Source of the DNA: Prorocentrum cordatum
Taxonomy: Eukaryota
Length of the DNA stretch: 55,911 bases
Direction: 5' to 3'
Assembly: GCA_963575745.1 (NCBI GenBank)
Contig: CAUYUJ010000125.1
Coordinates: forward strand, 62,001-117,911
Numbering within the stretch: position 1 is the first letter of the stretch; each line of letters opens with the position of its first letter. Position numbers and translations under genes: made by a program. This document shows, piece after piece, positions 1,762-47,581 of the stretch. The notes beneath the pieces are model-generated. The model was not told where the DNA came from, did no database searches, and was given only the letters and a program-made list of their open reading frames with translations.

Positions 1762-1806
1762 GCCCTCCGGCCCTCGCGCGCGGGGCCGGGCGGCGCGGGC
1801 CTGCAG

Positions 1807-1900
1807 GAGCGCATCGTGAAGGCCATGGGCTACCGTGTGGTGCAGATCCCGCACTGGCAGTGGAACCGGATCATGCACCGGAAGCAGAGGGTCGAGTATC
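1807..1900 (+). CDS. RAP-domain protein exon
   Basis: ERIVKAMGYRVVQIPHWQWNRIMHRKQRVEY completes the RAP motif (GY.VV.IP.W.W). CAG|G acceptor at 1806/1807, phase 0 with the previous exon. The 3' boundary is ambiguous by 3 nt (ATC repeat). Confidence 0.8.
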
Positions 1901-1960
1901 CGGCTGCCTCCGGCAGTGCCGCCACCGCGCCAGCGCAGCATGTTGGGTGGCACGCCCCCG

Positions 1961-2122
1961 CCCTCCACCTTCCGCACCTTCCGCGCGGCAGGTGCCGCGC
2001 CGCGGCGGACGCCGCCGCCGCCGAAACCTCTGCTGCGGCCTCGGTGGAAGCCGCAGTGGCGGCCGCGGCGGCGGCCGCCGCGGCGTGGAACCTGCCGCGC
2101 GGAAGGTGCGGAAGGTGGAGGG
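1961..2122. repeat. Perfect 33-bp inverted repeat (hairpin) inside the second RAP intron
   Basis: ccctccaccttccgcaccttccgcgcggcaggt (1961-1993) is the exact reverse complement of 2090-2122. Confidence 0.95.
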
Positions 2123-2248
2123 TGAGGGCGCGAGGGGGCGCGACGTGAGGGGCTGCTGGTGGGCCCCTCGGAAGACTTCGGAGGCCCTGCCAGGCGGCAC
2201 TCGGCATCCTTCCACGCCTCAGCGTGTCGTGAGGCACGGCGGCGGATC

Positions 2249-2347
2249 TCAAGATGTCGCGGTATTACGCCATCAAGGACCGCCGCGAGCTGGAGCCCCG
2301 GGACGCCGAGCCGGCCGACGTCGCGACCAATCAGCTGGACTACCTGG
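2249..2347 (+). CDS. RAP-domain protein exon
   Basis: (L)KMSRYYAIKDRRELEPRDAEPADVATNQLDYL(G); coding-like composition; G|GC donor at 2347/2348. The 5' junction is non-canonical if VEY-LKMSR is the real join. Confidence 0.7.
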
Positions 2348-3173
2348 GCGATGGGGGGGCGCACGGGCTGCGCACTGGCGTTCGGGCCTGGCTGGGCCCG
2401 TCTCCTCCCCCGCTCCCGCTGCGGCTCCTCCCCTCCCCTCCCCTCCGCCCTCTACCTCTCGTCCCCCTGCCTCCAGGGGAAGGAGAAGTAGCGGGAGGGG
2501 CACCTCGTGAGTTCCCCTTCCGTCCCCCCCGTCTGGCTCGCGGTCGGCGGGCAGTTTTTTTGATCCGCGGGTCGAGAGCGCACCTCTTCTGGTCGAAGCT
2601 AAGCGGGCCGCGCGAAGCCTGCATTAGACGGAGGGAGGGGGGGAGAGCGGCGGGGCCTCAGGGCGAGGCCGAGGGGAGGCAGAGCCCCAGAGACAGGCGG
2701 TGCCGAAGCCGCAGGGCGGTTGGCGTACAGGCCAGGCTGCGTCACCCCCTGGCGCGCTGGGAGCATTCGGCGCGTCGCGGCCTGGGGCGGAGAGAGCTGC
2801 TCCTCGCCAGGGTGGCCGCGCGAGGGCGCGACGGGAGCCGAGCGTCGCGCATCGCGTGGCGCGACCGCGCGAAGCCAGGGTGTCCTAGAGCTCTCCGGCG
2901 GCCTGCTTTTTCACAACGGAGACCCCTGGAGGGTTAGGCCGCTTCTGGAGGACAGGCTTCTCATCCCGGGCAGTTCTTTATCGGTCCTGGGGCCCGGCGA
3001 GGGCCCCCAAGAAGCTGCAGAACAGCCGCGGCCGTGATTCTTTCGCATCGAGCGGAGGAGGAGTGACCACCTCGAGACCACGCCTCGGCACGGGGTGTAC
3101 GCGCGCCTTCCTGGGGGCCAGAGGTGGGCCCAGCCAGCCCCGCCTGCCAGCACGCGGCCGGCGGCTCCCCGAG

Positions 3174-3260
3174 GCGAGTACTTCTTCCGCAAGGAGATGC
3201 CCTCATCCCACTGGTCCTGGCACCAGCCCCGCGTCGACCCAGCCTACCGGCTGCCTCCAG
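3174..3260 (+). CDS. RAP-domain protein, C-terminal region exon (3' end uncertain)
   Basis: GAG|GC acceptor at 3173/3174, phase-compatible with the previous exon, giving DYLG-EYFFRKEMPSSHWSWHQPRVDPAYRLPP. Possible CAG|GA donor at 3260/3261; stop codon not located. Confidence 0.65.
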
Positions 3261-3274
3261 GATCGGGCAACGAA

Positions 3275-3518
3275 GGGGGAGGAGGAGGAGGAGGAGGAGG
3301 AGGAGGAGGAGGAGGAGGGGAGGAGGAGGAGGAGGAGGGGAGGAGGAGGAGGAGGAGGAGGAGGAGGAGGAGGAGGAGGAGGAGGAGGAGGAGGAGGAGG
3401 AGGATGAGGAGGAGGAGGAGGAGGGGAGAGGAGGAGGAGGAGGAGGAGGAGGAGAGGAGGAGGAGGAGGAGGAGGGGAGGAGGAGGAGGAGGAGGGGGAG
3501 CGAGGGGAGGAGAGGAGG
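3275..3518. repeat. (GAG)n microsatellite
   Basis: Visible purine run. Confidence 0.95.
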
Positions 3519-3751
3519 GCGTTTTGTGCGGACGTTACGGGGGGGATTGGGTGGGGTAGGTAACGTCACGTTTTGCGCTGGCGCCGTCAAGAATGTAGAG
3601 GAACAACAGACGACAGCTCGGACGTCAGCACGAATCGTGAAGTTGCCTGGTGGAGGGGCGGGGGGTGGGGGCTGGGGGGGGGGGCCGGTGGTGGCGGCCG
3701 GGGCCGGTAAAGGCCTTAACCGTGAAAATGATTACATAGCGACGTACGTAC

Positions 3752-3947
3752 CTCGGGCCGGACGAAAGGGGGGGACAAGGAAAGGGGGGGTTACGAAATG
3801 TGCTGCATGCAGTTGGTTTCGGCCCCACCGAGGGGCCCATTCCTCGATACATAGCCGCCTCCGGCGCCGGGAGGCGCCGGGAAAATCAGCTACGTGAGCT
3901 GATTCTCAAAGCCCCCCTTTGCTATCCCCCCTGTCGCCCGACCCGAG
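3752..3947. mobile_element. MITE-like element family A, copy 1
   Basis: Imperfect TIRs (ctcgggccggacgaaagggggg... / ...ccccctgtcgcccgacccgag); internal sequence closely matches 17874-18071. Confidence 0.8.
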
Positions 3948-4119
3948 TAACCCATCTGCATTGAGTGGAACGAGGTGGTCCAGAGAGGTATGGCTGATGA
4001 CAACACAGGGCTCGTCACTGGTCGTGCAAGCTACATGGGAAGTGCGCGCGATGCACGACTCGCGGGACGGCAGCACGAGGCTCGACGAGGAAAGGGGGGT
4101 ATTGAATGAGGGGCCACAT

Positions 4120-4247
4120 GCGAACCCTACCCCTACCCCCTACGATTTCTGAGGGGGATGGTGGGGTTCACTTCGCTCGGGAGCTCCCGAACGAAGTGAA
4201 CCTCCCCCTCCCCCTCAGAAGTCGTGGGGGGTAGGGGTAGGGTTCGC
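4120..4247. mobile_element. Palindromic MITE-like element family B, copy 1
   Basis: gcgaaccctacccctacccc...ggggtaggggtagggttcgc, nearly fully self-complementary around gggagctccc; second copy at 45757-45906. Confidence 0.8.
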
Positions 4248-6399
4248 GTCTGGCTCCCTGATCGAACGAGGGGCAGGAAGAGGACGCAAGAGGCGCAGAA
4301 CAGTTCCACGCGACAGCAGGAGTGCGACAGTTTGAGGGAGGAATGCGACGACGATGGACGAGGAAGGAATGGACAATCGGACGACGATGGATGAGGAAGG
4401 AGGTTTATTTTGCCGTTGGGAGCTGGCGCGCGTCTGCTCTGAGCGATCGCCTCCCGCTCGCTCTCTTGCCCCTCCCCCCTCCCTCCTTCGGGGACCGAGG
4501 CGAGGGCTCCGCCGCCCCGCAGCCTGCTCCCGGCTCGCAGTCGGCAGGGTAACCGAAAGGGGGGGCCGGAGGGGCACGCGCGCTCGTGGCCGGCGCCCCC
4601 CCCGTCGCCTCGCCTGATTTGCGTGCTCTGTGTGCTGACGGTTGCCCGTCGGTCGTTGGAAGTAGAGGTGATTCTGGCTGCCCAGGGCCCAATCGACTTC
4701 GGGTGCCTTCCTGCTTCAAGGATCGACATGGTCTGGCTGTTGCTTGTCAATTCTTTGGGCGGGCCCGAGCCCAATCTGCTTTATCCGCCTTCCTGCTTCA
4801 TGTTTCTGCCTACTTCTTCCGTCCGGCGTGTACCCACCGCGTCCCCGCGAACGGGCGTTTGCTTTGGGGAAGCCTGACGGTGGTGAGCCTGGAGAGCTCG
4901 ACGCGGCCACGGCAAGATTCTGAATGGGATCCGACGAAACCCGTTTTCTCTAAACATGGGTACGAAGTTGGGGTAGCAAAGGCAGCGGAAGTCACGAGGG
5001 TCAGGTGCAACAAGTACCACCTCAAATGGTCGAGAAGCAATGGTCCAGACCGCAGGCGGGACTGCGAGTCTGGTCCAAAGATCGGTTTCGACTGCCGCCG
5101 TGCCCCAGACTTTGACCCAGCAGATGGCTGAAATGCAGCAGCAGGTGTTCTCTGATCAAAGCGGCATGTTCAAACACCAGCAAGGGGATAACCTCAATAG
5201 ATCGCGGGCTATTTTCACGGAGTTGTGCGAACGCCTGCCAGGCGCAAAATGGCCGGAGCGTGGGCCCTCAAGCTCAGGAAAGTTTGGGCAAGCTGTCGCC
5301 TGCGATTGCACAGGCGCGCCAATCCGATCACCGAGCACTCAGACAGGGAGTCAACCACGTTCTTGTAAGAATAAGTGTTGTCGAGCACGCTGTCCACCGA
5401 CATAGATCACTCGAAGCTTGGGCCAGACTGTTGGAGCACCATAGCAATGAATTAACTCAGCAGCTAGATCATGCTGCAACCGCTTGGGGGCAGGTTCGGC
5501 GCGAGACGTCGGGAGTCGCGCCGCGATCACCATCAGGAGACTGCTACACAAATGGCCGCCATTGCCTTGCAACCATTTCCGGTTTCCAGGCATGTCAGCC
5601 CGATGGGGCGGCCTCTCACTGGGCAACATGAGAAGCCCATCACCGCCAGCGGTTCGGGAGCTAGCCGGCTGGCGAGCAGTGGGTGACGCGCGCCCGCCGA
5701 CTCCTGGGGCGACCCCTAGGCAGGTGTGGGAGAAGCTTGACGCGACCGCGACGGGGGGGCCCGACGCTAGTGCGACGGGGAAACCCGACGCCTGTGGCGG
5801 AGGGTGGCTTCGGGAGGGAAAAATTAACAACGCCCCGCCGTCGCCGCGGCCGCATCCTGAGCGGGGGCCTGCCCTCCTTGGCGCGAACCACCAGCTGCTT
5901 CTAACCGACCTGAGCGGTCATGCTAGAGCGGTGGGTGCAGTCCCCAGAATGCTGGCGGCGCGCGCCGGATCTCCCGCCGCCGTCCGAGTTTGAACGGGCG
6001 GGCACTGGCGCGGGCTCGTCGGGCGACCAACGGCGTGCAGCTGAAAAGGCCGAGGATGTTAATGACAATGTACACAACGTATACATAAGCATATCGCCTT
6101 AAGTTTTTTGGTCTCGGCCGTCTTTCCCTTACTTTCGAGAATGGAAACAGGGCGCGTGCGCTGCGTTAAGTTTGGCATGAGGTAGACTAGGAGTAACCCT
6201 CAGGTGGCTTCGGGAAATCGAGGTGGATAATGCAGCGGCACAACGTGCGAGAGGCTCGTTAACAGCGGGAACTTCGGTGCCCGCGGCGCACAGTTTGGCC
6301 CATCATGATGCGACATCCTCAGAAGCGACGACCTCGAACGAAGGGTGAATGCCCGCGCGGGAGAAGCCAGTGCCCGAGATTGATTGGTTCAGAGGCTAC

Positions 6400-8530
6400 A
6401 TATAGTTTGAATGATAATGGATTGGTGCCGGCTGGCGGGAGCCGATGGGTGCATTTCTGATTTCTCTCATTGGAACAGTGTCAAGATGACCACCAATATG
6501 CCCAAGTTGCGCGTTCCTCGAATTCATCGGACTGAGCCATGTTTGGTATGAGGTCGTCGCCCGCTGGCAACGTCTTTGAAACTGCATTTAATTTAGGTCG
6601 CGGGTTGAACGCCGTGGAGACGGGGTCCGACATGGGAACTCTCCATATAATGGAGCGGGACGGCCCAAACAAAACCTACCAATGGCTTTACGACAGATGC
6701 CAGGAGTTCCTTGAGCGCCAGAGAGTATCAACGCGCAGATGACCGATAGTACCATGGCAGCAAGTGCAGGAATCTGCAGTGATTGGGTTCGGCGATGAAG
6801 CTGTTCTGCTTGCGGCGAAGGTTGCCCCTGGGGTTGCCCCCCCCCCCCGCGCCCCGGCGTCAGAGGCGGCGAGGGCGCCTTTGCGGCGGGGCAGCCCGGC
6901 GCGAATGAGAGTCCGACTTAGTTTGTCCACCCTGTGCCCGAGATGGCAAATGTGCCAGGTCTGGCTGTGAGCACCTGCGTTGGAAGGCCCCGTGCGCCAT
7001 CTGCCAGAGGGGGCGTGCACCCGGAGAGAAGCATGCGCCTTCGCTCATTTAGCGAAGTCGGGTGCTCCAGCTGTTGCGCCAGCATCTCGACCTGGTTCCC
7101 TGCCATCTTGAGGGCGTTCTAAGAGCTGCGACAGCGGGCGCGGACAGCGCAGGTCTTCCCCCCGCGCTTCGAACGGGGCTCGCGAGGAGGGCGAGGGCCA
7201 TTCCGGGGGGCAGAGCTCAGTCTGGGCCCCATCGCCTGGGGGGGTGCCAGACAGCAGTCGCCCGGGCGGGGAGACGAAGAGGCGGGGCACCCCGAGCCCG
7301 AAAGGGTAGGGGGCAGAACGCTTTGTGAGAGCCCCTGGCGAGGTAAGGGTCCTAAGGGCGACTGCGAAGGACGTCCTGGAGACCGCGACAGTTGTCCAAG
7401 GGCCAGGCGTGCAAGCGTCAATCCACCTCGGTCTCCTGGCGCCCCCGTTGACGCCGACCGCCCTGACGTGGCGCGCCCCGCGCGGCGCGGGGGGGGGGCG
7501 CTCGTTCATCCGCGAGGGAAGGGCGCCCGCATTCAGGGCGAAGCGCGGGGGGGGCCCGGCGCGGATCTGAGTCTCGCGTCGGGGGATCCCGACGCTCTAA
7601 CAGTCTTGGCGGCTCTCGCCGCAGGAGTCTGAGTGGATCCTTCTCTGAGTATGATCGCGGAGATTCCCGCAGGGACTCTTTGTCTGGCGAAGCGTCCTTT
7701 TTCGCGCCGCTGAGCTGGTTGAGCCGTCTACGAGGGCGAGGCGGCCACCTTCGTATAGTGTTCGCTTCGACAAATTGGTAGAAGCTGCTGAGATCCAGGC
7801 TCGCGCGCAGTCGGTCAACTGGACTCAGAATCCGACTGGGCGTGCGATCGACAATTGGCCCAGACCAGTGGCTGATGCTCGGCTTGAGCGCGTTCCTTCG
7901 TTAATGGGAAATGCGGGGGCTGCTGCTCGCGCGGCGGCGGACCAGCTGGAGGGCGAAATCCGCGGGAGTGGGGCCCGCCATCGGTGTAGCATGGATCGCC
8001 CAATCCCTGAGCCAACGTGCTTCGAGGATCCTTGCGCGTCCTCGGACGCCGTCCGGGACTTGGGCGGCGCCCGACGGAAACGCCTAGAGGAGGGCGGCCG
8101 ACGCCGTCCTTGGGAGTCTCCCTCGACTGCTGCTGCCGTCGTAGAGGGGAGAGAGTGGTTGGTCGATTCGGCATCTTGTCTCGACTCTATAGGTCGTGAG
8201 GATCGTACCCGTGGAGAACGATCTAGGATGTATCAGTCGGAAAAGGGTGCGATTCTGTCTACCACGAATTGTCTTGCACTTGCCAACAAGGCGGCGCGTA
8301 TTATCCTCAGTGAACCACTGCTGGAATCTGGAGTTTACCCTACCATGCTCGAAGATGCATCGCGGGTGCTCTCTCTTGGGCTTTGGGTCAATGAATATGG
8401 AAGCAGGTTTGATTGGGGCAGTAATGGGGGCGCTTTCATCACCATGCCTGACGGCAGAGCGCGACCTCGAGGTCAGAACACATGTCCGTCAAAACACCTC
8501 TGCAGCTGTAGGGCTGCGGAATAGATATAC
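6400..8530 (+). mobile_element. Degenerate Ty1/copia-like LTR retrotransposon remnant (gag-like fragment and aspartic protease)
   Basis: ORF 7775-8524 contains EWLVDSASCLDSIG...ILSTTN...VLSLG...YGSRFDW...MPDG, resembling copia-type retropepsin (WxxDSG...LxTANG...VLSLG...F.W...PDG). KTYQWLYDRCQEFLERQR at about 6670-6725 is gag-like. No RT, integrase or LTRs seen; boundaries approximate. Confidence 0.55.
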
Positions 8531-9624
8531 GAATCAACTATGGCCAGAACGGACCGTCGGGTTACCATGAGCACCCGAGTGCGCTTTGTATTTAGGACCC
8601 GCGCTTGACCCGTGGTCTAGTGGGGCCTCGTTTTCTCGATCTATCCCCGAGGAGCTGTCCAATGCCGTGCCCCCTCGCGCGGTCTGGGGATGCCCGAGCC
8701 GACGCTGTCGATCGGTTTGCGCCGCTGGCTTATCAGGCTGCCCATGCTGCGGACACATTCGACCTTCGCTCATTCTTCCAGCCGGCTGGTGGTATCGCGG
8801 CTCTGGAATTTCCTAAATGTTCCCTTTGCATTGTGCGCACACAGAGAATTGGATTTGTGTGCACTGGAGGAGGATGAGGAGGAGGAGGAGGAGGAGGAGA
8901 AGGAGGAGGAGGAGGAGGAACATGAAGGAGGTTTTGGGGCATCTTTGCCGCTGTGCGCTCCTCTGTGCCCCGGCGGGCTTCTCTTCCTGTCCAGTGTTCT
9001 TCGCCTTTTTATTTCCCATCGTGTACGCGCTGGTTGCGTATTTTTGAAACTGGTCGAGCGATTCTCATTTAGTTTGTAAGCTTGCCGTGGTGCCATGTTC
9101 GCAGAGGGCCGGCGGACTTATTCATGAATAAATCACGATGTCAGGGCCGACGGACTGGTTCATTCAGGATGTCTCGAACGGGGGCTGCATTTTAGAACAA
9201 TGTGTGAGGATGTCTCGGGCAAGCGAGCGCATGATTTCGCAAACGAAACGCCTGTCCTGCAGAATGTATAACTGATGCCTCGAGCGAATCGCTTATTTTA
9301 ACGTGTCCAGGCCACCAAGGGGGAGATCGAATACGAAAATCGTCGGACTCTTCGAACGTAGAACTACGTGGGCGGAAAGGATAGCTTTCATGCGTCATGC
9401 GCCCGTTCGCTTGCCACGTGTTTTCATGTGTCTGGGCCACTCAGGGGTGACATCCAACATGTGGTCATCGGGTTTCATGCCTGAACAAAGTTCGAGGATG
9501 TCCAGAGCGAGGGCCTTGCCTGAGAGTGAAGTGCGAAAATGTTTTGAACAGGGGGTCTCGTTTGCGAGGGGGAGGAAGAGGAGAAGGAAAATCAGCCACC
9601 ACGTGTTTTGATATAGATCTCTTC

Positions 9625-11220
9625 CGCCTGTGAGGTGAAACCGTGTGTGTTTACATGGGTTTCTTTCGCCCGTGAGCTGGTACCATCTTCTTTCACATGG
9701 GTTTCTGTCGCCTGCGAGCTGAAACCATATGCTTTTACATGGGTTCCTTTCGCCTGCGAGCTGACACCCTGTGTTGATGGACGGGTTCTTTTTGTCTGTT
9801 AGCTGACGCCACGTGTTTGTTACATGGTTTCCTTTCGTTCGTGAGTTGAAGCCACGTGTATTTACACCGTTCCTTTCGCCCGTGAGTTGAAGCCATGTGT
9901 GTTAAAATATTTTGGGTCCTATCGCCAGTGAGCTGACCCCACGTTCTTTCACATGGTTCTTTTCGCCAACGAGCTGAAACCATGTGCTTTCACATGACGC
10001 CATGTGTTTTTGCATGGGTTGCTTTCGCCAGTGAGTTGCAACCGCGTGATTTTATACTGTTCGGCCCTCGTCTCGGTTCGTCTTGCTTCGGCTCGACTTG
10101 TTTCAGTTCGTCGCGTCTCGGTTCGCCGCGTTTCGGTCCGTCCACTGTCAGTGTATTTCGCCTCGGTTCGGGTTCGCCCCCTGTTGGTTCGTCCCGCTTG
10201 GGAACTGGATCGGATCTTGAGCTCGAGCTGGTTGAGCTCCCCGCACCTTTCGATTGCAACCAACTTTGGGCGAGCTATGCGTTCAGGCAGCTCGAGCTTA
10301 AGATCCACAGGATTCGGATGCCAATGACGACTTGACCCACAACGCAATGGAGCACAGCACATTTTAACACAGCACAGCGAAGCACAGTTCAACACAGCGC
10401 GAAGCAATCGCAATTTACGCCGGTATTGCTGCCTTGAGAGCGCACAGCCTTCGTAATTTAGGATGGGTATGGTTCGCCGGATTGCGGCGACTTCGGCATC
10501 AGACGCCATGTGGTTCCGGGAGGGTGAGCCGAAACGCATTCGCCCGTGAGTTGAAACCCAGTGTATTTACATGGCTCTTGTCGCCCGTAAGCTGACACCA
10601 CGTGTGTTTACCTTGCTCCTTTCGCACGTGAGCTGCAACCGCCGGCTTTTCATGTGTTTCTTTCGTCATTGAGCTGACCCCACCTTCTTTTGCATGGATT
10701 CCTTTCGCCCGTGAGCTGAAACCATGTGCTTTTACACGGGCTCTTTTTGCCCGTTAGCTGACGCCACGCGTTTTTTCATGGGTGTCTTTAGGCCGTGTGC
10801 TGACGCCATGCGTTTTTACATGGGTTCCTTTCGCCCGTGAGTTGATATCATGTGTTTTTACATGGTTGATTTTGCCCATGAGCTGCGACCGTGTGTTTTT
10901 TACATGGGTTCCGTTCGCCAGTGAGCTGACCCCACCTTCTTCTACATGGGTTCCTGTCGCCCGTGAGCTGACACCAGGTGGTTTTACACGGGTTCTGTGT
11001 GCCCGTTAGCTGACGCCACACGTTTCTACGTGGGTTTCTTTCGCCCGTGAGCTGACGCCATATGCTTTTGCATGGGTTCCTTTTCCCCGTGAGCCGAAAC
11101 CATGTCTTTTTGCCCGTGGCTGACCCTACGTCCTTTTATTCGGGTTTCTTTAGGCCGTGAGCTGACGCCATGTGTTTTTGCATGGGGTCCTTTTGCCCGT
11201 GAGTTGGTACCACGTGATTT
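9625..11220. repeat. Degenerate 42-bp tandem satellite, interrupted at about 10060-10530
   Basis: Unit like ttcgcccgtgagctgacgccatgtgtttttacatgggttcct; the (g)agctg core recurs at about 9674, 9716, 9758, 9800 and again through 10540-11220. Confidence 0.9.
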
Positions 11221-12690
11221 TTCATTTTTCGGCCCTCGTCTCGGCTTGTATTGTTCCGGCTCGTCCAGTTTCAGTTCGTCGCGTCTTGGTTTGCCGCGTT
11301 GCGGTCCGTCCACTGTTGGTACGTTTCGCCTCTGTTGGGCTTCGCCCCCTGTTGGTTCGTCCCGCTTGGGAACTGGGTCGGATCTTGAGCTCGAGCTGGT
11401 TGAGCTCCCCGCACGTTTCGATTGCAGCCTGCTCTGGACGAGCTCAGGCAGCTCGAGCTAATGATTGAGCTCAGTTCGGTCAGAATTCGGATGCCAATAA
11501 TGATTTGACCCACAACGCAACGGAACGCAGCACAGTCAAACGCAGCACGTCGCATGACTCTTCAGCACGGAGCAACCGCCTGTTGCGGCAGGATCACGGC
11601 CCTGGGGGTGCCCATCCCTCGTCAGTTACGAACGGTCCTGCTCCTCGGCTTGCGGCCCCTGTGGCAGGAGACGCCATGTGGTTTTAGGAGGGTGGGCCGG
11701 CACGTATACGGCTCGTCCCAATCTCGGTTCGTCTTGCCGCGATGCGATCAGGATCTGTTCGGCTCTCGCCTTGGTTCGTGTGGTTTCGATTCGCCCAGTC
11801 TGACTTCGTCGCGCCTCGGTTCCCCGCGTTTCGGTCCGTCCACTGTGTGTGTGTGTGTGTTAGCATCGGTTCGGATTCGCTCCCTCTTGGTTTGTGCAGG
11901 TTCGGAAGAGAATCGGATCTTGAGCTCGAGCGGGTTGCAGAGTTCGAGGATGCCTCGATCGAAGCGCTTGTTGTGCAAAATCCGATGTGGATATCTCGAA
12001 CGAAACGCTTGTTTAGCAGAGAGGAACCTGGGCGCCCCGCGATGCTCTAGAAGGCTCTGAGAGCGTACCTCGGATCTTCGTAGCCGTCGCGCAGCACAGC
12101 ACAGTACGGTACAGTTCAACACAGTTGAGCATGTTTCAACACAGCACAGTTCAACACAGCAGGTCGCAGCACACTTCAGCACAGCACGGATCAGTTGCAA
12201 TGTGCGCCAGAGTCGCGGCCCTGGGGAGGCACATCCTTTGTAATTTTGGAGTGGTACTTTCCATCGGATTGCGGCTCCTTCGGCAGGAGACGCCATGGGG
12301 TTTCGCGAGGGTTAGCCGACACGTATTCGGCTCGTCCCAGTCTCGGTTCGTCTTGCCTCGATTTGATTAGGATCGGTTTGGCTCTCGCCTTGGTTCGTGT
12401 GGTTTCGGTTCGTCCTGTCTGATCTCGTCGCGCCTCGGTTCGCCGCGTTTCGGTCCGTCCAGTGTCGGTGCGTTTCGCCTCGGTTCGGATTCGCTCCTTC
12501 TGAGTTCGTCCCGCTGCGGAACTGGCCCTTGCGCTCGATCTGGCTGAGCGCCCCGCGGGCTTCGATTGCAACCAACTCTGGGCAAGATCTGCGTTCAGGC
12601 AGCTCGAGCTGAAGAGCCAGATCAGGTCGGTCAGGACTCGGATGCCAAGGACGATACATCCACAACGCAATAGAGCACAGCTCAGCTTAA
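10061..12690. repeat. Four diverged copies of a 450-600 bp block (about 10061-10515, 11229-11690, 11709-12300, 12327-12690)
   Basis: Shared motifs in the same order: tctcggttcgtcttg, gtttcggtccgtcca, gatcttgagctcgagc, tcggatgcca..cacaacgcaa, agacgccatg (not every motif in every copy). Confidence 0.85.
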
Positions 12691-12932
12691 CGCTGCAGGA
12701 TACTTTTCAATGCAGCACGGCATTTCAGAGCATAGCCCTTGGTACGGTACATCACTATCGGTATTTGCAGCATTGCAATTGTCTGTCGCCCAGGTAGTTG
12801 TCTTGGAAGCGCTTCCCTGCCTCTCATTTCTACATTATTTCCTGGGCTCGTAGGTCAATCATGTTTCTCGGATCGTGGCCATCAAGCCGCTATTGCTCAT
12901 GCCAGCCAGCTTTTAGCCAACGCCCCCCAAAA

Positions 12933-13490
12933 AGGAAGGAGGAGGAGGAGGAGGAGAAGGCGGAGGAGGAGGAGGAGGAAGAGGGGAGGAGGAGGAGGAG
13001 GAGGAGGAGGAGGAAGAGGAGGAGGAGGAGGAGGAGGCGGATGAGGAGGAGGAGGGAGGAGGAGGAGGAGGAGGGGAGGAGGAGGAGGAGGAGGAGGAGG
13101 AGGAGGAGGAGGAGGAGGAGGAGGAGTAGGAGGAGGAGGAGGGAGGGAGGAGAGGGAGGGGGAGGAGAGGGAGGGGATGGGAGGGAGGGCGTGCGTGCGT
13201 GCGGGGGGCGGGCGGGCGGGCGGCGCGGGTGGGCGGGCGGGCGGGCGGGCGGGAGGGAGGGAGGGAGGGGAGAGGGAAGAGGGGAGAGGGAAGGGAGGAT
13301 GATGATGATGATGATGATGAGAGGAGGAGGAGGAGGTGGAGGAGGAGGAGGAGGAGGAGGAGGAGGAGGGGGGAGGGAAGGAGGGTGGGAGGGAGGGAGG
13401 GAGGGAGGGAGGGAGGGAGGGAGGGAGGGAGGGAGGAGGAGGAGGAGGAGGAGGAGGAGGAGGAGGAGGAGGAGAAGAAGGAGGAGGAAG
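12933..13490. repeat. Compound microsatellite (GAG)n/(GGGA)n/(GGGC)n/(GAT)n
   Basis: Visible runs. Confidence 0.95.
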
Positions 13491-15059
13491 GTTGGGAAGG
13501 AGGTGCATCGGCGGCAGGAGACGTGGATGGGGCGGGTGACCTTTCCAGCGCCCCCCCCCCGCCTCAGGAGTCCCCAGGTCTGACCGCACGGGAGGCAGGC
13601 CGCTCTGGAGCGCCCCGTAGTTCCCGCCCCGCCTTCTCCTGCCGGCGCTGCCTCGCCCGCCACGTGCCACGCCGGTCCCCGAGGCGGGGATTGGATTCTC
13701 CAGCGTCCTCGCCTGGGGGATCCACCTTCGGGGACCTCGGCATACGGTGGAAGGAATGAATGGAGCCGCGTGTCCGCAGGCACGTGGGCGATGGCACGAG
13801 CCTGCGCCAGGCAGTGTGCCTGCGCACCGCTGCTTTCCAGGCTTCCGCTGGAGACGTGCCCAAATCTGAGAAATTCCAGCCCGAATTTCGACAACTCTGC
13901 TTGGCATGCTTAGACATGCGGTGGGTGTGAAGAAATAGTCCCGCCCCCCTGGGGCCCGGGTATATCCAGAGCCACCGCCCGCTGGGGTCCCTGGACGTCG
14001 GTTCCCCGGGCGGTGGATGCGGACAGATCCCCGCCTCGCACCCTCGGTCGGCGCCAGAAATGCGTGCGCTCCCTCCTGCCGTTCCTCCTTGAGGGGCACA
14101 GTGGAGGTGCGCCGCTTCCTGGCGCCTCAATGGCGCCCCTGATCCTTCTGATGATGAGGAGGAGGATGCGAGGAGGAACTTGTACCGGTACCGTTACCCT
14201 GCCATCGTCACCACGGCCAGATTCGCCTCGAAATCCTGGTCAGAGTTCGCCCCACGAGAGGTCCGGGGAGTAGCGGTATTCTGGGCATTTTCGTGCCCCC
14301 CTCCCCAGAGGAGGGGGAACGAGGATGGGGATGAGGGTGAGGACGGCTTGGCCACGAGGGCGCACACGGCGGTCCTGGGCCCAGTGTGGGCCTGGCCAGG
14401 GTGAGTGTGGGTGGCTACCCTGACGTCCGCCGGTGGGAGTTTCTTTCATCTCTTCGCTCGTTCCGCCGGCCCTTGCTGTCGCACCGCCGTGGACTGCCCG
14501 AGTGCTCGTCGTCAACACGGTGCGGCTGGGCGGGGGGCTGTTCTCTTGGGGGGTTTCCTCCTCCCACGGGGCATCCTTTTTTGGGCTTCCGCGTGCCTCT
14601 CGAGTGTTTCTTGGCGCGTGCCCTGGCGTCCGCCGATGGGAGCTGATATCTTGAGTCGCGGCCTCAGAGGTCCCGACCGCTTCCCGGGGGCGGCTTCCGT
14701 CCCCGAGGGACTCTTGAGGTTCCCGAGGCCCCGAGCGCGGCCTCCCGGGGCCGGCATCGAGGAGGCACCGCCGGTGAAAGGAAGCGTCTCGTCGGCTGGA
14801 GGGCGCGTACTGGGGGGGGCGGCGGCGCACGGGGTGGGGGGGGTCGCGGGGGCTGCCGAAAAGGGGCCCTCTGCGGCCCCTGAAGGGCCCGCTCGAGCGC
14901 AGAAGGGGCTTTTGGGGCCCGAAGAGGGCACCACCCATTCGCGCCCCCGCCCCCCCCCCAGCATCGCCCCCCCTCTCCTTCTCGCCACAGCAAGGAAGCA
15001 TCTCGTAGAAGATCTGGGCAGTTGGCGCCCTCCGAGGGGGCAGGTTCACACTAGTCTTC

Positions 15060-15420: not shown

Positions 15421-17495
15421 CTCCTCCTCCTCCTCCTCCTCCTCTTCCTCCTCCTCCGCCTCCTCCTCCTCCTCCTCCTCCGCCTCCCCTCGCATTCATC
15501 CCTTACCCCTCCTCCCCCTTCCTCCTCCTCCTCCTCCTCCTCATCCTCACTCTTCCTCCTCATCCGCCGCTTCCTCATCCTCCTCCTCCTCCTCCTCCCT
15601 CCTCTCCTCCCCTCCCTCTCTCCTCCGCCTCCTCTTTCCTCCTCAGTGTCTTCACGCCAGTACGGGGCAGCGCTCCCGCGCTCGCCCCGCCCACGACTGG
15701 GCCCCCGCGACCCGCCCCCCCAGCGCGCCCCACTGGGCGGGCCCGGCGCCGGGCTCCGAAAAAAGGCGCCCTCGACGCCCCCGCCCCGTTCGGGCCCCCC
15801 ACCCCTTGTTTTTTTCCTTCCTCCCTCCTCCCTCCTCCCCTCCTTCCCCTCCCTCCTCCTCTCTCCTCCTCCTCCTCCTCCCCTCCTCCTCCTCCTCCCC
15901 CTCCTCCCCTCCTCCCCCTCCTCCCTCCTCCTCCTCCTCCTCCCTCCCTCCTCCTCCTGCCTCCTCTCCTCACTCCTCCTCCTCCTTCTCACCCTCCTCC
16001 CCCTCCTCCTCTCCTCCTCCTCCTCCTCCTTCCTCCTCCTCCTCCTCTCCTCGTCCTCCTCTCCTCTCCTCCTCCTCTTTTTTTTTCCTCCTCCTCCTCC
16101 CTCCTCCTCCCCTCCTCCCCCTCCTCCCCCTCCTCCTCCTCCTCCTCCTCCTCCCTCCCCTCCTCCTCCTCCTCCTCCCTTCCTCCTCTCCTCCCTCCCT
16201 CCTCGGCCTCCTCCTCCGCCTCTCCTCCTCCGCCTTCCTCCTCCTCTTCCTCCTCCTCCTCCTCCTGCGCCTCCTACTCCTCCTCACCTCCTCCTCCCTC
16301 CCTCCTCTCCTCCTCCTCCTCTCCTCCTCTCCGCATCCGCTCCTCCTCCTCCTCCTCCTCCTCCTCCTCCTCCGCCTCCTCCTCCTCAGTGTTCACGCCA
16401 GTCTCCGGGCAGCGCTCCCGCCGCTCGCCCCGCCCACGAGGTGCCCCCGCCGCGCCCCCGCGGGCGGCCGGCCGGCGGGCTCCGAAAAGGCGCTCTCGGC
16501 GTCCGCCCCGTCGACGCTCTCCGGCGCGGCGCGGGCGCCGCCCTCCTCCTCCTCCTCCTCCTCCTCCTCCTCATCCTCTCGCCTCGCCTCATCCTCTGCG
16601 GTCCGCCTCCTCCTCCTCCTCCTCCTCCTCCGCCTCCTCTTCCTCCTCAGTGTTCACGCCAGTCCGGGCAGCGCTCCCGCCGCTCGCCCCGCCCACGAGG
16701 GGCCCCCGCCGCGCCCCCACGGCCGGCCGGCCGGCGGGCTCCGAAAAGGCGCTCTCGACGTCCGCCCCGTAGACGCTTTTTTTTTTCTTTTTTTTTTTCT
16801 TTTTTTTCTTTCTTTTTTTTTTTCTCCTGGCTCGTCTCGGGGGGTGGCCCCACCAGGGCCCTCCCTCTCTCCTCATATTCCACTCCCACTCAGTCCTCCT
16901 CCTCTATCCTACCTCCTCCTCATCACCCTCCTACCCCCCCCTCTCTAACTCATACTCCTTCATCCTCATCCTAATAATTCATACTCCCTCCTCATCATCA
17001 GCCTCCAAATCCTCGCCCTCATACCCCCTACTCCCCCACCAATCTTCTCTCTCCTCCTACCTCCTCAACCCCCCTCCTCCCTAACTCCTACTGCGGGCTG
17101 CTCTCGATCCTTCCTCCCTCTCATACTCCCTAATTATTCCTCCTCCTCCTCCCCACCTCCGCCCACCCTACTCCCATAACTACTCCTCACTCAATAGTCA
17201 TCCAGCTCCTCCCTCCCTCACTCCTCCTTCTCCTCCTCCCCGCATCCTCCTCCCCCTCCTCCTACTCCCCTCCTCCTCTCCTCTCCTCCGCCTCTCCTCC
17301 TCTCCTTCCTCTCTCTCCTCCTCTTCTCCTCCTTGTCCTCCTTACCTCCTCCTCCTCCTCCTTCCTCCTCACCTCCTTCCTCCTCCTCCTCCCTCCTCCC
17401 ACAATCCTCCCCCTCTTCCTCCTCCTCCTCCTCCTCCTCCTCCCTCCTCCCTCCCTCCTCCTCCTCCTCCTCCTCCTCCTCCTCCTCCTCCTCCC
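15421..17495. repeat. CT-rich low-complexity region with three copies of an approximately 130-bp GC-rich block (about 15641, 16384, 16645)
   Basis: (CCT)n matrix; block cctcagtg..ttcacgccagt...gggctccgaaaa..ggcgc repeated three times with small indels. Confidence 0.9.
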
Positions 17496-23269: not shown

Positions 23270-24513
23270 ACAGGTGATAATGATGCTTGTGTTGGTGATG
23301 ACGATACTGATGATCGTGGTAACGATGACGATGGCGGTGATGTTGGTGAATTCGTGTTTTTTGATGGTGATGGTGGTGATGATGCTGTTGCTGATGATGG
23401 TAATGATGGTGATGATGACGATAGTGAGAAGGACGAGGAGGATACGGAGACGATGATAAAAGTGATGATGATGAGGATGAGGATGATCAGGATGATAACG
23501 ACGCTGATGATGCTGCTGCTGATGATGACGTGGACGATGACGATGAGGATGCGGATGGGGATGCTGCTGTTGATGACGGTGATTCCGATGATGATGACGA
23601 TGATGGTGAGACGGATGCGAAGTCTACTCAGAGGATACGGATGATGGTGATGATTATGACAGTGGTGGTGACGTTGGTGATGATGTTGTTGATGGTGATG
23701 GTGGCGACGACGATGACGACGACGATGATGCTGATGATGGTGGTGGCGAATGATGATGATGCTGATGATGCTGATGATGATGCTGATGATGATGCTGCTG
23801 AAAATGACGACGATGATGATGGCGACTATATGGATCATTATGGTGCTGATGACTGTGATGGTACTGTTGCTGATGATGCTGCTGATGCCGATGCTGATGA
23901 CGATGATGATGCCGATGATTCCGACGACGATGGTGGTGGTGCTGGTGTTGGTGTTGGTGTTGGTGATGATGATGATGATGATGATGATGAGGATGATGAT
24001 GCTGATGATGATGATGCTGATGATGATGATGATGATGATGATGACCATGATGCTCATGTGATGTTGAAGGTGATGATGAGAAGGATGACGAGGCTGCTGC
24101 TGCGGCTGCTGCTTCTGCTGCTGAATATTATGATGCTGCTGCTGCTGATGGTGATGATGATGCTGACGACGACGATGACGATGAAGATTAAGATGCTGCT
24201 GACCAGTATGATGATATGCTGACGATGATTCTGATGATCATGGGGATGAGGAGGGTGAGTATGCTTATCATGCTTATCATGTGATGGTGATGCTTGTGCT
24301 GATCAGGTTGATTATGATGCAGATGATGATGATGGTTATGATGATGATGCTGGTGATGATGACGATACTGAGAAGGATGAGGAGGATACGGAGACGATGA
24401 TAACGGTGATGATGATGAGGGTGACCAGGATGATGCTGATGATGATGATGCTGATGATGATGACGATGACGATGACGATGATGATGATGATGATGATGAT
24501 GCTGATGATGATC

Positions 24514-24603
<90 letters not shown>

Positions 24604-24604
24604 C

Positions 24605-24651
<47 letters not shown>

Positions 24652-24700
24652 GTGATGCTAATTTTGCTGATCATGCTGATGATGGTGAGATGGATGAGCA
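23270..24700. repeat. Degenerate (GAT/GCT/GGT/GAC)n tract
   Basis: Visible; includes an internally duplicated motif gagaagga.gaggaggatacggagacgatgataa (about 23426 and 24369). Confidence 0.95.
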
Positions 24701-27844: not shown

Positions 27845-28025
27845 GCACAAGCTCCACACTCGGCATCGAGGGGGCCCGATGGCCCGAAAAAGCGGTCAAG
27901 GTGAGGGGACCTGGAGCTCGTCGAAAGAAATTCCAGGATCAGTGGGGTGGATGCGGTCCCTCAGGCGTTTTCCGACGGTGTGCGAAGACCCATTCTTCAA
28001 ACGTCGAGGACCCAAGGACGCGCGG

Positions 28026-28962
28026 GAGAAGGAGGATGAGGATGAGGAGGAGGAGGAGGAGGAGGCGGCGGAGGCGGAGGCGGAGGCGGAGGCGGAGGCG
28101 GAGGCGGAGGCGGAGGCAGAGGCGGAGGCGGAGGCGGAGGCGGAGGCGGAGGCGGAGGCGGAGGCGGAGGCGGAGGCGGAGGCGGAGGCCGAGGCGGAGG
28201 CGGAGGCGGAGGCGGAGGCGGAGGCGGAGGCGGAGGCGGAGGCGGAGGCGGAGGCGGAGGCGGAGGCCGAGGCCGAGGCGGAGGCGGAGGCGGAGGAGGA
28301 GGCGGAGGCGGAGGCGGAGGCGGAGGCGGAGGTGGCCGAGGCGGAGGAGGAGGAGGAGGAGGAGGGAGGAGGAGGAGGAGGAGGAGGAGGAGGAGGAGGA
28401 GGAGGAGGAGGAGGAGGAGGAGGAGGAGGAGGAGGAGGAGGAGGAGGAGGAGCGGAGGAGAGAGGAGGAGGGGAGGAGGAGGGGGGCGGAGGCGGATGAT
28501 GATGATGATGATGATGAGGATGAGGAGAGGAGGAGGAGGAGGAGAGGAGGAGGAGGGGAGGAGGAGGAGGAGGAGGAGGAGGGAGGAAGGAGGAGGAGGG
28601 GGGGGGGAGGAGGAGGGGAGGAGGAGGAGGAGGAGGAGGGGGAGGAGGAGGAGGAGGAGGAGGAGGAGGAGGAGGAGGAGGAGGAGGAGGAGGAGGAGGA
28701 GGCGGAGGAGGAGGAGGAGGAGGAGGAGGAGGAGGCGGAGGAGGCGGAGGAGGAGGAGGAGGCGGGAGGAGGGGAGGAGGGCGGAGGAGGAGGAGGAGGT
28801 GGAGGAGGAGGAGAAGGAGGAGAGGTGGGAGGAGGCGGAGGAGGTAGGTGGAGGAGGAGGAGGAGGAGGAGGAAGGAGGAGGAGGAGGAGGAGGGGAGGA
28901 GGGGGGAGGGGGGGAGGGGAGGAGGAGAGGAGGGAGGAGGAGGGAGGAGGAGGACGAGGAGG
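28026..28962. repeat. (GAGGCG)n hexamer array (about 28066-28345) within a (GAG)n tract
   Basis: Visible runs. Confidence 0.95.
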
Positions 28963-33970: not shown

Positions 33971-36752
33971 TCAGGCAGGGACGCGCACGATTGGTAACTG
34001 CGGAGCGCGGCACGGCACGCTGAACATGTGGTGCCACGCGCTGTGGCCAGAGCTGATAGCTTCGACTGCCGCGGATCGGAGCTTTCTCTGGAACTGTCTC
34101 GCAGAGGGGCAATCGACGAAATGTTGCGGAAGATGCTTGAAAATACACACCACACCGAAAATGGACCTGCACATCATTGGATGCATGCTGGGTTCAACTG
34201 TATCACGCAGCGCCCTGTTGCGCATGCGCCTTACTCCACCAAAGCCGTGGCTTTCCAGGTTGCCCGTCATGGGAGGGAAAAGTGCACAGAATACAGGGGG
34301 AGCGATGCCGTGAGCAACTTTGTGCAACAAGCCTAAGATAGACAAGTCCCGTCTCATACATGCCGGGGCGAGGCTGTAATCACAAAGGGCCTTCTCTTCG
34401 GAGACCCCGAGCGCCTGCAAAAACTCACCCTGCAAGCCGTCTAACGGAGCTAAGACAGTATCAGTTGCATGAAAGATTGCTGGGACTGCGCCGTCCACGA
34501 ATGAGACAACATGGCACTTGAACAGCCTGAAGAGCTCAGCTGTGCTGTAGAACTTGCTAGACCGAAGCAGCGCACGGAGCCGCCAAGAGGCTTCGCGAGC
34601 AAACTCTTGGACGGCACGATACGTGGTCAACCTGGGGTCGAAGAGTACGCCGAGGGTCTTGAAATCGTCCCCGCAGGGCCGGCACTTGTCGAGAATGTGC
34701 CTGCTCTCTGTGGTCGCCTCGAGAATCACCTGGTTGGCCGCGCCACCATTGTGAAGCGTGGACTGGCACTGGCGGCACGCAGCGAGGATAGAAGAATTTG
34801 TGGCCACACCGTCGAGCTCTTTCCAGCAGTTGAGGTCGTCAGCGAAAACGCACTCCGTGAAATCGGCCGCATGCACAGCAAGTTCGGCATCACCATAAAA
34901 CACATCCCACAACGGTGGCCCCAGGACCGTGCCTTGGAGCACCATGTCTTGAAGCGAGAAAGGCTTGGAGAGGAGTCCGTCCACGCTGACATGCGCCTGT
35001 CTCACTGAAAGCCAAGACCGAATGACGTCCAGAAGGGGCGCGCACACTCCCGACGCACGTAATTTAGCCATGAGGCGGTCAGAGTTGACCCTGTCGAACG
35101 CTCCGGCCACGTCCGAGCAGTACACCCCCACGCGCCGACCATTGCAGACAGCACGAATCCAACTACGCACCATGTAATTATGCCAAAGCGTCGCTGTATC
35201 CCCGGTTCGTGTGATAAGCGAATTGGTGGCCCCCGTATGCTCCACTGGTCTCGAAGAAAGGAAGCAGCACGCTAGCAAAGCAACGCTCGACGACTTTGCT
35301 GAGTTGGGATGTGAGGTGAATTCCACGGAAATTCGATGGATTCGAACGCACGTATCTCCTGAACAGCGGGTGCAGCCAATGAAGCTTCCATGATTCGGGC
35401 CACTCGCCGCTATCCAAAATCAAGCGTGCAAGCATGGCAATAGGAGTAGCTAGCTGCGAGGCGCATTTCTTCATAATCCGACATGATAGCCAATCGGGGC
35501 CAGTGCAGCTGTCTTCCCGCAGCCTGCACAGGACACGCGAAACCGCACGGGAACGTATCGGCATGAAGCTGGTCATCGAGAGCGTGCTGCTCATATGTGT
35601 GGAAGAGAACGTGTTGTAGACCTCAGGCGGAAGACCAAACTTATCACTGAAAGTATCTGGGAACATATTGGCCTTACCACGAGCAGACAAGGCCCACGAC
35701 CCACTCTTCGACTGCAGCGGGGGTATACCAACTGACCCCTTGCCAGCACGAAGAAGTAACGAATCACATAATGACCACCATTTCTTGCGCGATGGCCGCA
35801 AGTCCAACATACGCTCCCGAGTTCACTGAACGTACTCGTCGTAATGACGGCGGAGGCCTGCAGAGCACTCGTCCCGTCGACGTTCAAAATTCGGTGTCCC
35901 ATATGCTTCAACTTTTCTCCTGATGAGCTCCACGCACGCCTCGTTGATCCACGGGTGGGTGGACTTCAGGGCGACGGCGGCGAAAGTCGTGATGAACTTT
36001 TTCGCCGTATCGAGAATGCGACCTGTGAGTTTGGTTGCAGCAGCTGTTGCAGAGCAGGATGCGAACAGCGATTTCCAATCCATGTTCTGCAACTCGGCAC
36101 GAAGCTGGGGCCACTATGCATGTTGAAATAACCACTGCTCGCGGACAATTGGTGAAGAACGCTGCACGCGCATGGCAAAAGACACGTGTACCAAATTATG
36201 ATCGTGCTCATTGATGGGCGGGAGGACTTTGCACGACAGGCCGGAAGACACATCCGTCAAGACAAGATCCAACAAATTGTGGCCCCTGGTGGGTTTCCCG
36301 ACTTTCTCCCGTAGGCCCATGCGGCTGCAAGTGTCGAGCAGGACCCGGCCCTCTTTACATGCGCCCTGTGAGGAGAAACGCAACCACTGGCTGTGATGCA
36401 CGTTCATGTCGCCCATAACAATGGTGCCCGCGATCTGATGCTGGTAGCCGCGCCACTCCTCCAATAGACTGTGGATAGTGTGGACCTCTCCCTGCGCAGG
36501 AGGCCGGTACCAAAGAGCTAGCAACATCGGACCGATATTCGTGTGGATTATGTGCCAAGACCGCTCCGCATCAAGAGAATCGCCAACATGGACGACGCAA
36601 TTCTTGGAATATTCACGCGCGAACAATATGATGCCTCCACCTCGTCTGCCGTCGCGGCGGTCGAGGCGCGGTACGACAGTGTAGCCCTGCAACAAAGTTT
36701 CCGTAACAGACCTGTCTGACTAAGACTCGGTGGTTGCCACGATATCGGGCCT
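33971..36752 (-). mobile_element. Degenerate 5'-truncated LINE (APE endonuclease plus reverse transcriptase)
   Basis: APE motifs RPDIVATTES*, RLDRRDGRRGGGI, WYRPP, MGDMNVHH, PTRGHNLLDLVLT, DHNLV (36114-36752). RT motifs TGPDWL, WK, NPSNFRGIHLTS, DVAGAFDRV, QGTVLGP, FADDL, TLGVLFD (33971-35810). Frameshifts and stops split ORF2. Confidence 0.93.
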
Positions 36753-45756: not shown

Positions 45757-45906
45757 GGGGGCCACAAGCGAAGCCTACCCCTACCTCCCACGAGTTCTGA
45801 GGGGGAGGCTGGGGTTCATTCCGTCTGGGAGCTCCCGAGCGGAGTGAACCCCACCCTCCCCCTCAGAAATCGTGGGGGGTGGGGGTCGGGTTCGCACGTG
45901 GCCCCC
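45757..45906. mobile_element. Palindromic MITE-like element family B, copy 2
   Basis: gggggccac...gggagctccc...gtggccccc; homologous to 4110-4247. Confidence 0.8.
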
Positions 45907-45943
45907 TATCTGTTGCATTTTTGTTTGCGACGTCGGATCTCAG

Positions 45944-45963
45944 GGGTGGGCGGCCACGCGCAG
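45944..45963 (+). CDS. Candidate 20-nt micro-exon of the HEAT-repeat gene
   Basis: CAG|GGG TGG GCG GCC ACG CGC AG|GA; supplies W..TR-R phase-compatible with AAVEAL of the next exon, as in HEAT W.VRRAAVEAL. Confidence 0.35.
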
Positions 45964-46809: not shown

Positions 46810-46844
46810 GCTGGTTCTGTCATTGTTGGTTCCCCTATACAAGG

Positions 46845-47551: not shown

Positions 47552-47581
47552 AGTGTGTGCTCGTGCAGTCTTCCCTTCCAG

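Follow-up and report, generated by a model that had tools for sequence, protein, structure and literature searches.

A probable non-canonical, hairpin-bearing intron in an expressed RAP-domain gene of the core dinoflagellate Prorocentrum cordatum

The RAP gene and its 348-nt insert

Prorocentrum cordatum is a core dinoflagellate (class Dinophyceae) whose genome is reported to have 59.7% G+C and long introns rich in inverted-repeat "introner elements" (PMC10666404). We analyzed a 55,911-nt stretch of this genome (assembly GCA_963575745.1, contig CAUYUJ010000125.1, positions 62,001 to 117,911 of the forward strand), hereafter called the window; coordinates count from its first base. At the left end of the window, where the G+C content is 68 to 69%, the plus strand carries the last part of a gene for a RAP-domain protein, one of whose exons is followed by a 348-nt, hairpin-forming insert that is missing, to the base, from the RNA of the gene.

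The exon before the insert matches the Pfam RAP family (PF08373; E value of 6.1e-10; 39.4 bits against a cut-off of 24.2) over profile positions 22 to 54 of 58. When this exon was searched against 1.84 billion representative proteins, 31 matches were obtained at E values of ≤0.001, the best being a 244-amino-acid (aa) protein (P0001); precomputed PF08373 annotation is present on P0001 and on all homologues listed. P0001 is encoded on a contig of only 993 nt, which therefore cannot contain the introns, making it a transcript-like protein. Spliced at the RNA-supported joints, the window yields exactly the last 167 aa of P0001 and then the stop codon at 13618-13620, and P0001 contains KQRVEYLKMSRYY. 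The 90% cluster of P0001 has two further members, P0033 (459 aa, on a 1716-nt contig) and P0032 (104 aa), the latter an NCBI entry named "unnamed protein product [Prorocentrum cordatum]." Taking three GC-AG introns (1903-2253, 2348-3173, and 3267-13570) out of positions 1825-13620 reproduces P0032 without a single differing letter, so the window is that annotated locus or is identical to it.

RNA contigs from four runs, belonging to four studies (X1, X5, X10, and X15, the last a poly(A) metatranscriptome), were aligned to positions 1786 to 3275. One contig in each run (1712, 1136, 1698, and 1214 nt) covers 1799-1897, 2246-2346, and 3173-3262 without a mismatch. Two joints connect these blocks, one from 1897 to 2246 that skips 348 nt and has 3 ambiguous bases and one from 2346 to 3173 that skips 826 nt and has 5 ambiguous bases. 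At its loose ends, the X15 contig continues into the last bases of an exon at 954-1124 on one side and, from 13570, into the beginning of the final exon on the other, so it spans this whole part of the gene without any of the four introns.

The layout that follows from these data begins with the exon at 954-1124 (KVSAILTK...ATMCLQ), which is also supported by tblastn of P0001 and by spliced translation; earlier exons lie outside the window. An intron of 682 nt (1125-1806) comes next, with a 10-nt identical boundary repeat (GCCTGCAGGA) and a GA..AG pair in 1 of its 11 registers, and leads to the RAP-domain exon at 1807-1899 (ERIVKAMGY...KQRVEY). The 348-nt insert occupies 1900-2247, its register being ambiguous over 1898-2248, and is followed by the exon at 2248-2347 (LKMSRYYAIKD...DYLG), likewise found by tblastn of P0001. 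Beyond it are an intron of 826 nt (2348-3173; boundary repeat GGCGA, with a GC..AG register), an exon at 3174-3260 (EYFFRKEMPSSHWSW...RLPPG), an intron of 10,307 nt (3261-13567; boundary repeat CAGGA, with a GA..AG register), across which the X15 loose end past 3262 reads 13570-13599, and the last coding exon at 13568-13620 (VPRSDRTGGRPLWSAP), which ends in TAG. All four introns carry a boundary repeat, of 10, 3, 5, and 5 nt in gene order. A GA..AG or GC..AG register is available in each of the other three and in none of the registers of the 348-nt intron.

The original prediction, made from the letters alone, had read the coding sequence as ...KQRVEY followed, after the insert, by LKMSRYY..., and both this frame (to 1899 and from 2248) and every other sequence detail it described hold. 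The direct repeat ATC bounds the 348 nt at 1898-1900 and 2246-2248, and none of the four registers is of the G[T/C/A]..AG type (AT..GG for 1898-2245, TC..GA for 1899-2246, CC..AT for 1900-2247, and CG..TC for 1901-2248). The short inverted ends are exact, with ATCCG at 1898-1902 pairing with CGGAT at 2243-2247. Inside them lies a central palindrome with 82-nt arms (1953-2034 and 2049-2130) that are 87% complementary around a perfect 33-bp core stem (1961-1993 with 2090-2122), which cannot be extended. In the reading frame of the upstream exon, the insert has a TGA at 2146-2148 and a second one at 2230-2232; if retained, it would truncate the protein at the first of these, with loss of a conserved C-terminal part that is kept across dinoflagellates.

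Transcripts and orthologues at the insert junction

The RNA contigs lack the 348 nt exactly at the predicted non-canonical junction in all four runs, and they match the exons of the window at 290 of 290 bases in each. The exons of the RAP gene are thus expressed. Within the insert, the bins 2136-2185 and 2186-2235 have a depth of 0 in all four runs, and in three of them the depth of bin 1886-1935 is the share of its 12 exon bases only. In X1, this bin has a depth of 21.8 versus about 7.3 expected from the exon part, an excess for which we have no explanation. DNA carry-over is not visible, as none of the four runs has cover on the unique parts of the 826-nt intron.

Four other joints were listed (2000 to 2087, 2015 to 2058, 2023 to 2060, and 2084 to 2815), all of them in other contigs and with short sides of 21 to 27 nt or with mismatches. 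We considered these joints, along with further inter-letter entries and loose ends in 1960-2120, as possible RAP isoforms and rejected them; we take them to be GC-rich repeats or related hairpins elsewhere. Pieces of the stem arms (within 1960-2121) occur in other RNA contigs of X1, X10, and X15. One of these, X15 record 15, combines 1975-2000 (0 mismatches) and 2087-2121 with a different 21-nt loop, and another, X1 record 4, matches 2078-2115 with 0 mismatches. Hairpins related to the insert stem thus seem to be transcribed elsewhere.

For a comparison with orthologues, we started from 79 stored proteins, excluded the 3 of the gene's own cluster and 23 that lacked the anchor motif or were too short, and retained 53 segments. 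The motif R-x-[ED]-[YM]-x-x-M-x-R is gap-free in 52 of the 53, the lone exception (P0053) having an 11-residue insertion further on. Conservation of EY-(L/I)-(K/R)-MSRYY across the junction, which the original prediction had proposed as a check, is borne out in the form EY-[LIVMA]-[RKQ]-M-x-R, again without a gap in 52 of 53.

The same orthologues were used to score alternative junctions. The original prediction had named GT(1891)..AG(2253) as the canonical alternative; this pair exists, but as one of 52 in-frame, stop-free G[T/C/A]..AG pairs. No joint at GT(1891)..AG(2253) was listed in any of the four runs, and neither was a joint at any other of the 52, although contigs miss rare isoforms. 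In a profile built from the 53 orthologues, the observed join scores 122.0 bits, the best of the 52 alternatives (GC1906..AG2253) scores 117.7 bits, the junction of the public gene model (GC1903..AG2253) scores 112.3 bits, and GT1891..AG2253 scores 102.4 bits. The profile margin is modest, and the RNA contigs are the stronger evidence. They also show that the public 104-aa model, P0032, is wrong at two of its three junctions. At the insert it reads VEYP-MSRYY (GC1903..AG2253) versus VEYLKMSRYY in the RNA, and at the 10.3-kb intron it reads PPGS-VPRS (GC3267..AG13570) versus PPG-VPRS (GA..AG, 3261-13567).

We also looked for relatives of the gene. In protein searches with P0001 (134 to 427 aa) and P0033 (252 to 804 aa), no protein outside their own 90% cluster was listed as closer than 73% and 61%, respectively, and P0033, which differs from P0001 at several residues, is the only close gene variant seen. 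Proteins of 62 to 198 aa that would read from the exon into the insert were not found in the database; 2 of 132 candidates emerged, both ordinary orthologues, and the result is no evidence either way. A metagenome scan with P0001 returned four orthologue contigs with 63 to 66% identity and did not return the 993-nt contig of P0001 itself. The spliced-leader motif was absent from these four contigs and from the window.

Hairpin, known intron classes, and the rest of the window

The RNA of 1880-2270 folds with a z score of -12 relative to 100 shuffled sequences, none of which folds as well. By itself, the 348-nt intron has a minimum free energy of -272.6 kcal/mol and forms a single hairpin between intron positions 20 and 346, with a small 5' hairpin ahead of it; the base of the large hairpin shows imperfect pairing (11 of 13) between intron positions 20-32 and 334-346. 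In an alternative fold, an AUCCG/CGGAU helix closes the hairpin at the very ends. Among 479 segments of 348 nt scanned across the 56 kb, one matches the intron in folding strength, a segment of the neighbouring intron at 1125-1806. That intron contains inverted (CTC)n and (GAG)n microsatellites (1299-1367 and 1604-1672, 96% complementary), whose hairpin is the most stable 348-nt fold of the window. The hairpin of the insert is itself real, and it may guide excision.

The closest known kind of intron is found in Amoebophrya, a parasite from the basal syndineans with a reported share of non-canonical introns above 60% (PMC7789003). As described for strains A25 and A120, these introns have no fixed terminal dinucleotides, a 3- to 5-nt direct repeat, and 8- to 20-nt terminal inverted repeats that form a hairpin, and their splicing route is given as unknown (Farhat et al. 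2021, PMC7789003). The 348-nt intron resembles them in its RNA-supported junction without fixed terminal dinucleotides, in the 3- to 5-nt direct repeat over its exon/intron boundaries (here ATC), in a predicted hairpin that brings the exon ends together, and in having a dinoflagellate host. It differs in being a single intron in a core dinoflagellate and in having its strong pairing in an internal palindrome with 82-nt arms, with no copy family in the 56-kb window.

Introns of core dinoflagellates are described as having an identical repeated boundary that is present once in the mRNA and always holds GG, usually as AGG, the site being placed for G-N..AG (Mendez et al. 2015, PMC5032977). All four RAP introns share with these a short sequence at both intron ends that occurs once in the mRNA. 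The three neighbouring introns fit both the GG/AGG boundary repeat (PMC5032977) and the GT/GC/GA..AG rule (PMC11453091, PMC12584245, PMC5177918), whereas the ATC repeat holds neither GG nor AGG and allows no G[T/C/A]..AG register. "Non-canonical" splicing in core dinoflagellates has, in the accounts consulted, meant GC or GA donors, with some C-starting donors remarked on in Symbiodinium kawagutii. We found no description in the literature of an RNA-supported intron of the present kind in core dinoflagellates, though the supplements of those papers could hold such counts.

Transposon introners of Polarella and Symbiodinium are a further point of comparison. Their splice sites, GT/GC/GA and AG, are reported always to come from the duplication or from the element, and one class described from Polarella glacialis has a duplication of 3 nt (Roy et al., 10.1101/2020.10.14.339549). 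Like them, the present insert is small and non-autonomous, has inverted repeats and a short flanking duplication, and sits in a coding exon; unlike them, it supplies no GT/GC/GA..AG pair. DNA-transposon introners (Roy et al.; Gozashti et al.) are defined by terminal inverted repeats, a target-site duplication, many similar copies, and splice sites that come from the duplication or the element; of these features, the insert has a candidate duplication of 3 nt and terminal inverted repeats of 5 bp, and no copies were found in the 56-kb window. The published introner survey of P. cordatum covered only introns annotated after mapping that was limited to GT/GC/GA donors (Dougan et al. 2023, PMC10666404) and could therefore not have found the 348-nt intron.

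Outside the dinoflagellates, nonconventional introns of euglenids and hemistasiid diplonemids have variable non-GT-AG borders and end pairing (PMC12501133, PMC12621601). The present intron shares with these the non-GT-AG borders and the base pairing near the ends, in an unrelated lineage. The splicing code given for Euglena is 5'-N3CDG ... CH'GN5-6|R with complementary D and H' (PMC12501133); we rejected this class for the insert, in which CGG or CTG follows N3 in two registers but the matching 3' motif is missing at the required distance or the exon that follows does not begin with a purine.

Several other classes were tried and rejected. A U12 (AT-AC) intron needs [AG]TATCCT and an AC or AG end (as quoted in PMC5032977), and this one starts with ATCCGG and ends with GG; the GTATCC at 1896-1901 misses the RNA-supported registers by 2 nt. 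For self-splicing group I or II introns or other Rfam RNAs, 20 matches were obtained at E values of ≤10, none of which reached its gathering score or belonged to an intron family; the best were generic long-hairpin microRNA models on both strands (63.3 bits versus 197 needed). Reconstitution of a canonical site by a nested intron (stwintron) requires G as the first intron base, where A, T, C, or C stands here. An IRE1-type CNGCNGN loop motif is present at 1901-1907, but its predicted cut falls outside the RNA-allowed registers, and a bulge-helix-bulge motif is excluded by a terminal helix that is continuous and without bulges. Substitution editing of the annotated GC-AG product does not account for the RNA, which is 3 nt longer.

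The rest of the window is poor in genes. In a Pfam scan of 108 open reading frames (ORFs), four had matches. Two belong to a retroelement on the minus strand at 33974-36719, similar to long interspersed nuclear elements, with a reverse transcriptase (PF00078; E value of 1.7e-07) and an endonuclease-reverse transcriptase (PF14529; E value of 2.1e-09). The other two are HEAT-repeat ORFs on the plus strand at 45178-47893 (PF13646; E values of 3.6e-05 and 8e-07), which probably form a second multi-exon gene. Between them are long inverted repeats at 47032-47198 and 47407-47547 (57- and 63-nt arms), possibly introner-like elements in introns of the HEAT gene, and similar GC-rich motifs can be seen by eye near 46700-46800 and 47900-48010.

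A near-perfect palindromic element of about 150 nt occurs twice, at 4110-4257, within the 10.3-kb RAP intron, and at 45757-45906, just upstream of a HEAT-repeat exon. It has arms of 74 to 75 nt and no spacer, and the mean column identity of the two copies is 89%. It looks like a family of miniature inverted-repeat transposable elements (MITEs) or foldback elements and is unrelated in sequence to the 348-nt insert. The 10.3-kb intron also contains a tandem array at 10539-11111 (42-nt unit, 13.7 copies, also with a 126-nt period), and a related 84-nt repeat lies nearby at 9625-9837. Very long trinucleotide microsatellites occupy 49961-54468, 23362-24697, 28025-28962, 12937-13488, and 15819-16387; they include (GAT)n with about 1500 copies over 4.5 kb, (TGA)n with 447 copies, and several (GGA)n/(TCC)n arrays, and they account for the odd GC content and skew of those stretches.

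Competing explanations and a possible excision route

The insert is precisely lost from poly(A) RNA, its loss restores the conserved protein, and no joint at the canonical alternatives is listed. We consider it probable that the 348 nt are a genuine non-canonical, structure-rich intron of an expressed, conserved RAP gene in a core dinoflagellate, precisely removed from the pre-mRNA. The origin of the RNA in the insert-bearing copy, the role of the hairpin, and the machinery involved are what we infer from these observations. Structure-guided non-canonical splicing in a core-dinoflagellate gene, which the original prediction had proposed with Amoebophrya introners as precedent, stands as far as the exact non-canonical junction in RNA and the core-dinoflagellate host are concerned; the definition of an Amoebophrya introner does not fit the insert.

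A number of observations weigh against reading the insert as an intron of this kind. An inverted repeat of 8 to 20 nt, as in Amoebophrya, was sought within 30 nt of each intron end, as in Dougan et al. 2023 (PMC10666404), and the insert, unlike the Amoebophrya introns, offers only the 5-bp terminal repeat, a longest perfect repeat of 6 nt, and the imperfect 11-of-13 pairing; a perfect repeat of at least 6 nt is found in about 14% of 3000 random intervals. After correction for GC content, the fold has a z score of only -2.7, and long palindromes are common in the window, where 10 pairs were found. Among 20,000 random 348-nt intervals, 9.2% have a boundary repeat of at least 3 nt, so the ATC repeat is weak evidence when taken alone; its combination with the inverted ends is not weak, since a terminal inverted repeat of at least 5 nt occurs in 0.55% of the intervals and both features together occur in 0.2%. 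The profile margin of the observed join over the best canonical alternative is small (4.3 bits), X1, X5, and X10 have no recorded library type, and the insert is a single case, with no second copy in the 56-kb window. No contig in the four runs bridges 1897/1898 or 2247/2248 as an unspliced precursor would, although contigs miss rare forms. None of 24 listed runs contains half of the stretch's words (all shares ≤0.22), and since no DNA run with the stretch was found, the genomic presence of the insert rests on one assembly.

An alternative hypothesis is that the mRNA comes from another gene copy with identical exons and no insert, be it a recent paralogue, a retrogene, an allele from a different strain, or, should the assembly be in error, the real sequence. 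The copy in the window would then be freshly disrupted, unspliced or silent, and would carry a small palindromic transposon with a 3-nt target-site duplication. We regard this explanation as possible but rather unlikely. An RNA from which the element and one copy of the short repeat are missing has the exact look of an unoccupied target site, and the P. glacialis introner class offers a described example of a 3-nt duplication (10.1101/2020.10.14.339549). The window is rich in MITE-like palindromes, including the two copies of the 150-nt element with their 89% mean column identity, and in the genome both gene duplication and mobile palindromes are abundant. A close gene variant, P0033, does exist, and the published assembly is reported to recover only 57.9% of BUSCO genes (PMC10666404), so a gene copy could be missing from it. 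The lack of a precursor contig in the four RNA runs, together with the finding that 0 of the 24 listed runs hold half of the stretch's words, would also be compatible with a separate source of the mRNA. However, the RNA contigs match the exons of the window itself at all 290 bases in every run, P0033 differs from P0001 at several residues, and no closer paralogue was listed in the searches of 134 to 427 and 252 to 804 aa. The insert would cut off the conserved C-terminal part, and if there is no other gene copy, its remaining unspliced is hard to square with that conservation; as a transposon, the insert would have terminal inverted repeats of just 5 bp and be alone of its kind in the window.

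Two further explanations were weighed. In one, mature transcripts keep the insert, and a false junction arises in the cDNA during library preparation when reverse transcriptase switches from one ATC copy to the other at the foot of the hairpin. Template switching classically occurs where a stable hairpin lies between short direct repeats (PMC2923612, PMC8240250), the fold of the insert is very stable, and the junction resembles template-switch products in being an apparent non-canonical "intron" with a short direct repeat and a structured stretch (PMC2923612, PMC8240250). Unlike such products, the skipped stretch has no RNA cover in any of the four libraries, and reading across the junction gives back a conserved protein. 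Assembly yielded the skipped form alone, in all four runs from four studies, and the flanks outside the strong stem (2136-2235), which fragmented-RNA libraries should cover if the insert were retained, have a depth of 0 in every run. By chance alone, a jump would need to recreate exactly the sequence that 52 of 53 orthologues keep without a gap, and a retained insert would truncate the protein at the TGA at 2146. Because the insert flanks have no RNA cover in the four libraries, we rate such an artefact as very improbable. In the other, ordinary splicing uses a nearby pair, either GC(1903)..AG(2253), giving VEYP-MSRYY, or GT(1891)..AG(2253), giving KQR-MSRYY. In-frame, stop-free alternatives are available (52 of them), and the public model uses the first of these two pairs, but none of the 52 joints is listed in the four runs, in which the joint of the gene runs from 1897 to 2246. 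The orthologue profile gives the two pairs 112.3 and 102.4 bits versus 122.0 for the observed join, and at the 10.3-kb intron, too, the RNA contradicts the public model; ordinary splicing is the explanation to which we give the least credence.

If the insert is indeed an intron removed from the pre-mRNA, its history and removal could be pictured as follows. A GC-rich palindromic element would have inserted into a formerly continuous exon, leaving the 3-nt boundary repeat. In the transcript, the insert would fold into one nearly end-to-end hairpin, with the perfect 33-bp stem as its core and AUCCG/CGGAU or the neighbouring CCGCC/GGCGG pairing at its base, and this hairpin would set the two exon ends side by side. 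The cut would fall within the ATC repeat, at the base of the helix, and the machinery making it would take no account of terminal dinucleotides. The likeliest agent would be the route that removes structured non-canonical introns in Amoebophrya, euglenids, and diplonemids, possibly in the form of a spliceosome that tolerates any dinucleotide where structure fixes the ends.

We speculate, tentatively, that core dinoflagellates, and not only Amoebophrya, have a mode of intron removal that is defined by RNA structure and able to rescue palindrome-hit genes at sites without splice signals. In a bolder form of this idea, the CC..AT register would give an excised hairpin with a terminal pair C1900-G2245 and a 2-nt 3' overhang, the product shape of RNase III-type enzymes; an endonuclease could then make the cuts, with the exons re-ligated afterwards, and the excised product could enter a small-RNA pathway.

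Should the mRNA instead derive from a copy that never had the insert, the locus would record a very recent insertion of a palindromic element into a conserved exon, which would be ordinary, yet useful for understanding how introners begin. If excision at the RNA level is true, a free-living, bloom-forming core dinoflagellate removes an intron that lies outside the known splice rules of its group, an Amoebophrya-like non-canonical intron with a different architecture. The phenomenon known from Amoebophrya would then span the dinoflagellate tree, and its mechanism would become testable in a culturable species. Such introns would also be systematically hidden or mis-annotated by pipelines that accept only GT/GC/GA..AG. 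The public model of this gene, pushed onto GC-AG sites, has two wrong junctions, and annotation limited in this way may therefore misread an unknown number of genes in such very large genomes.

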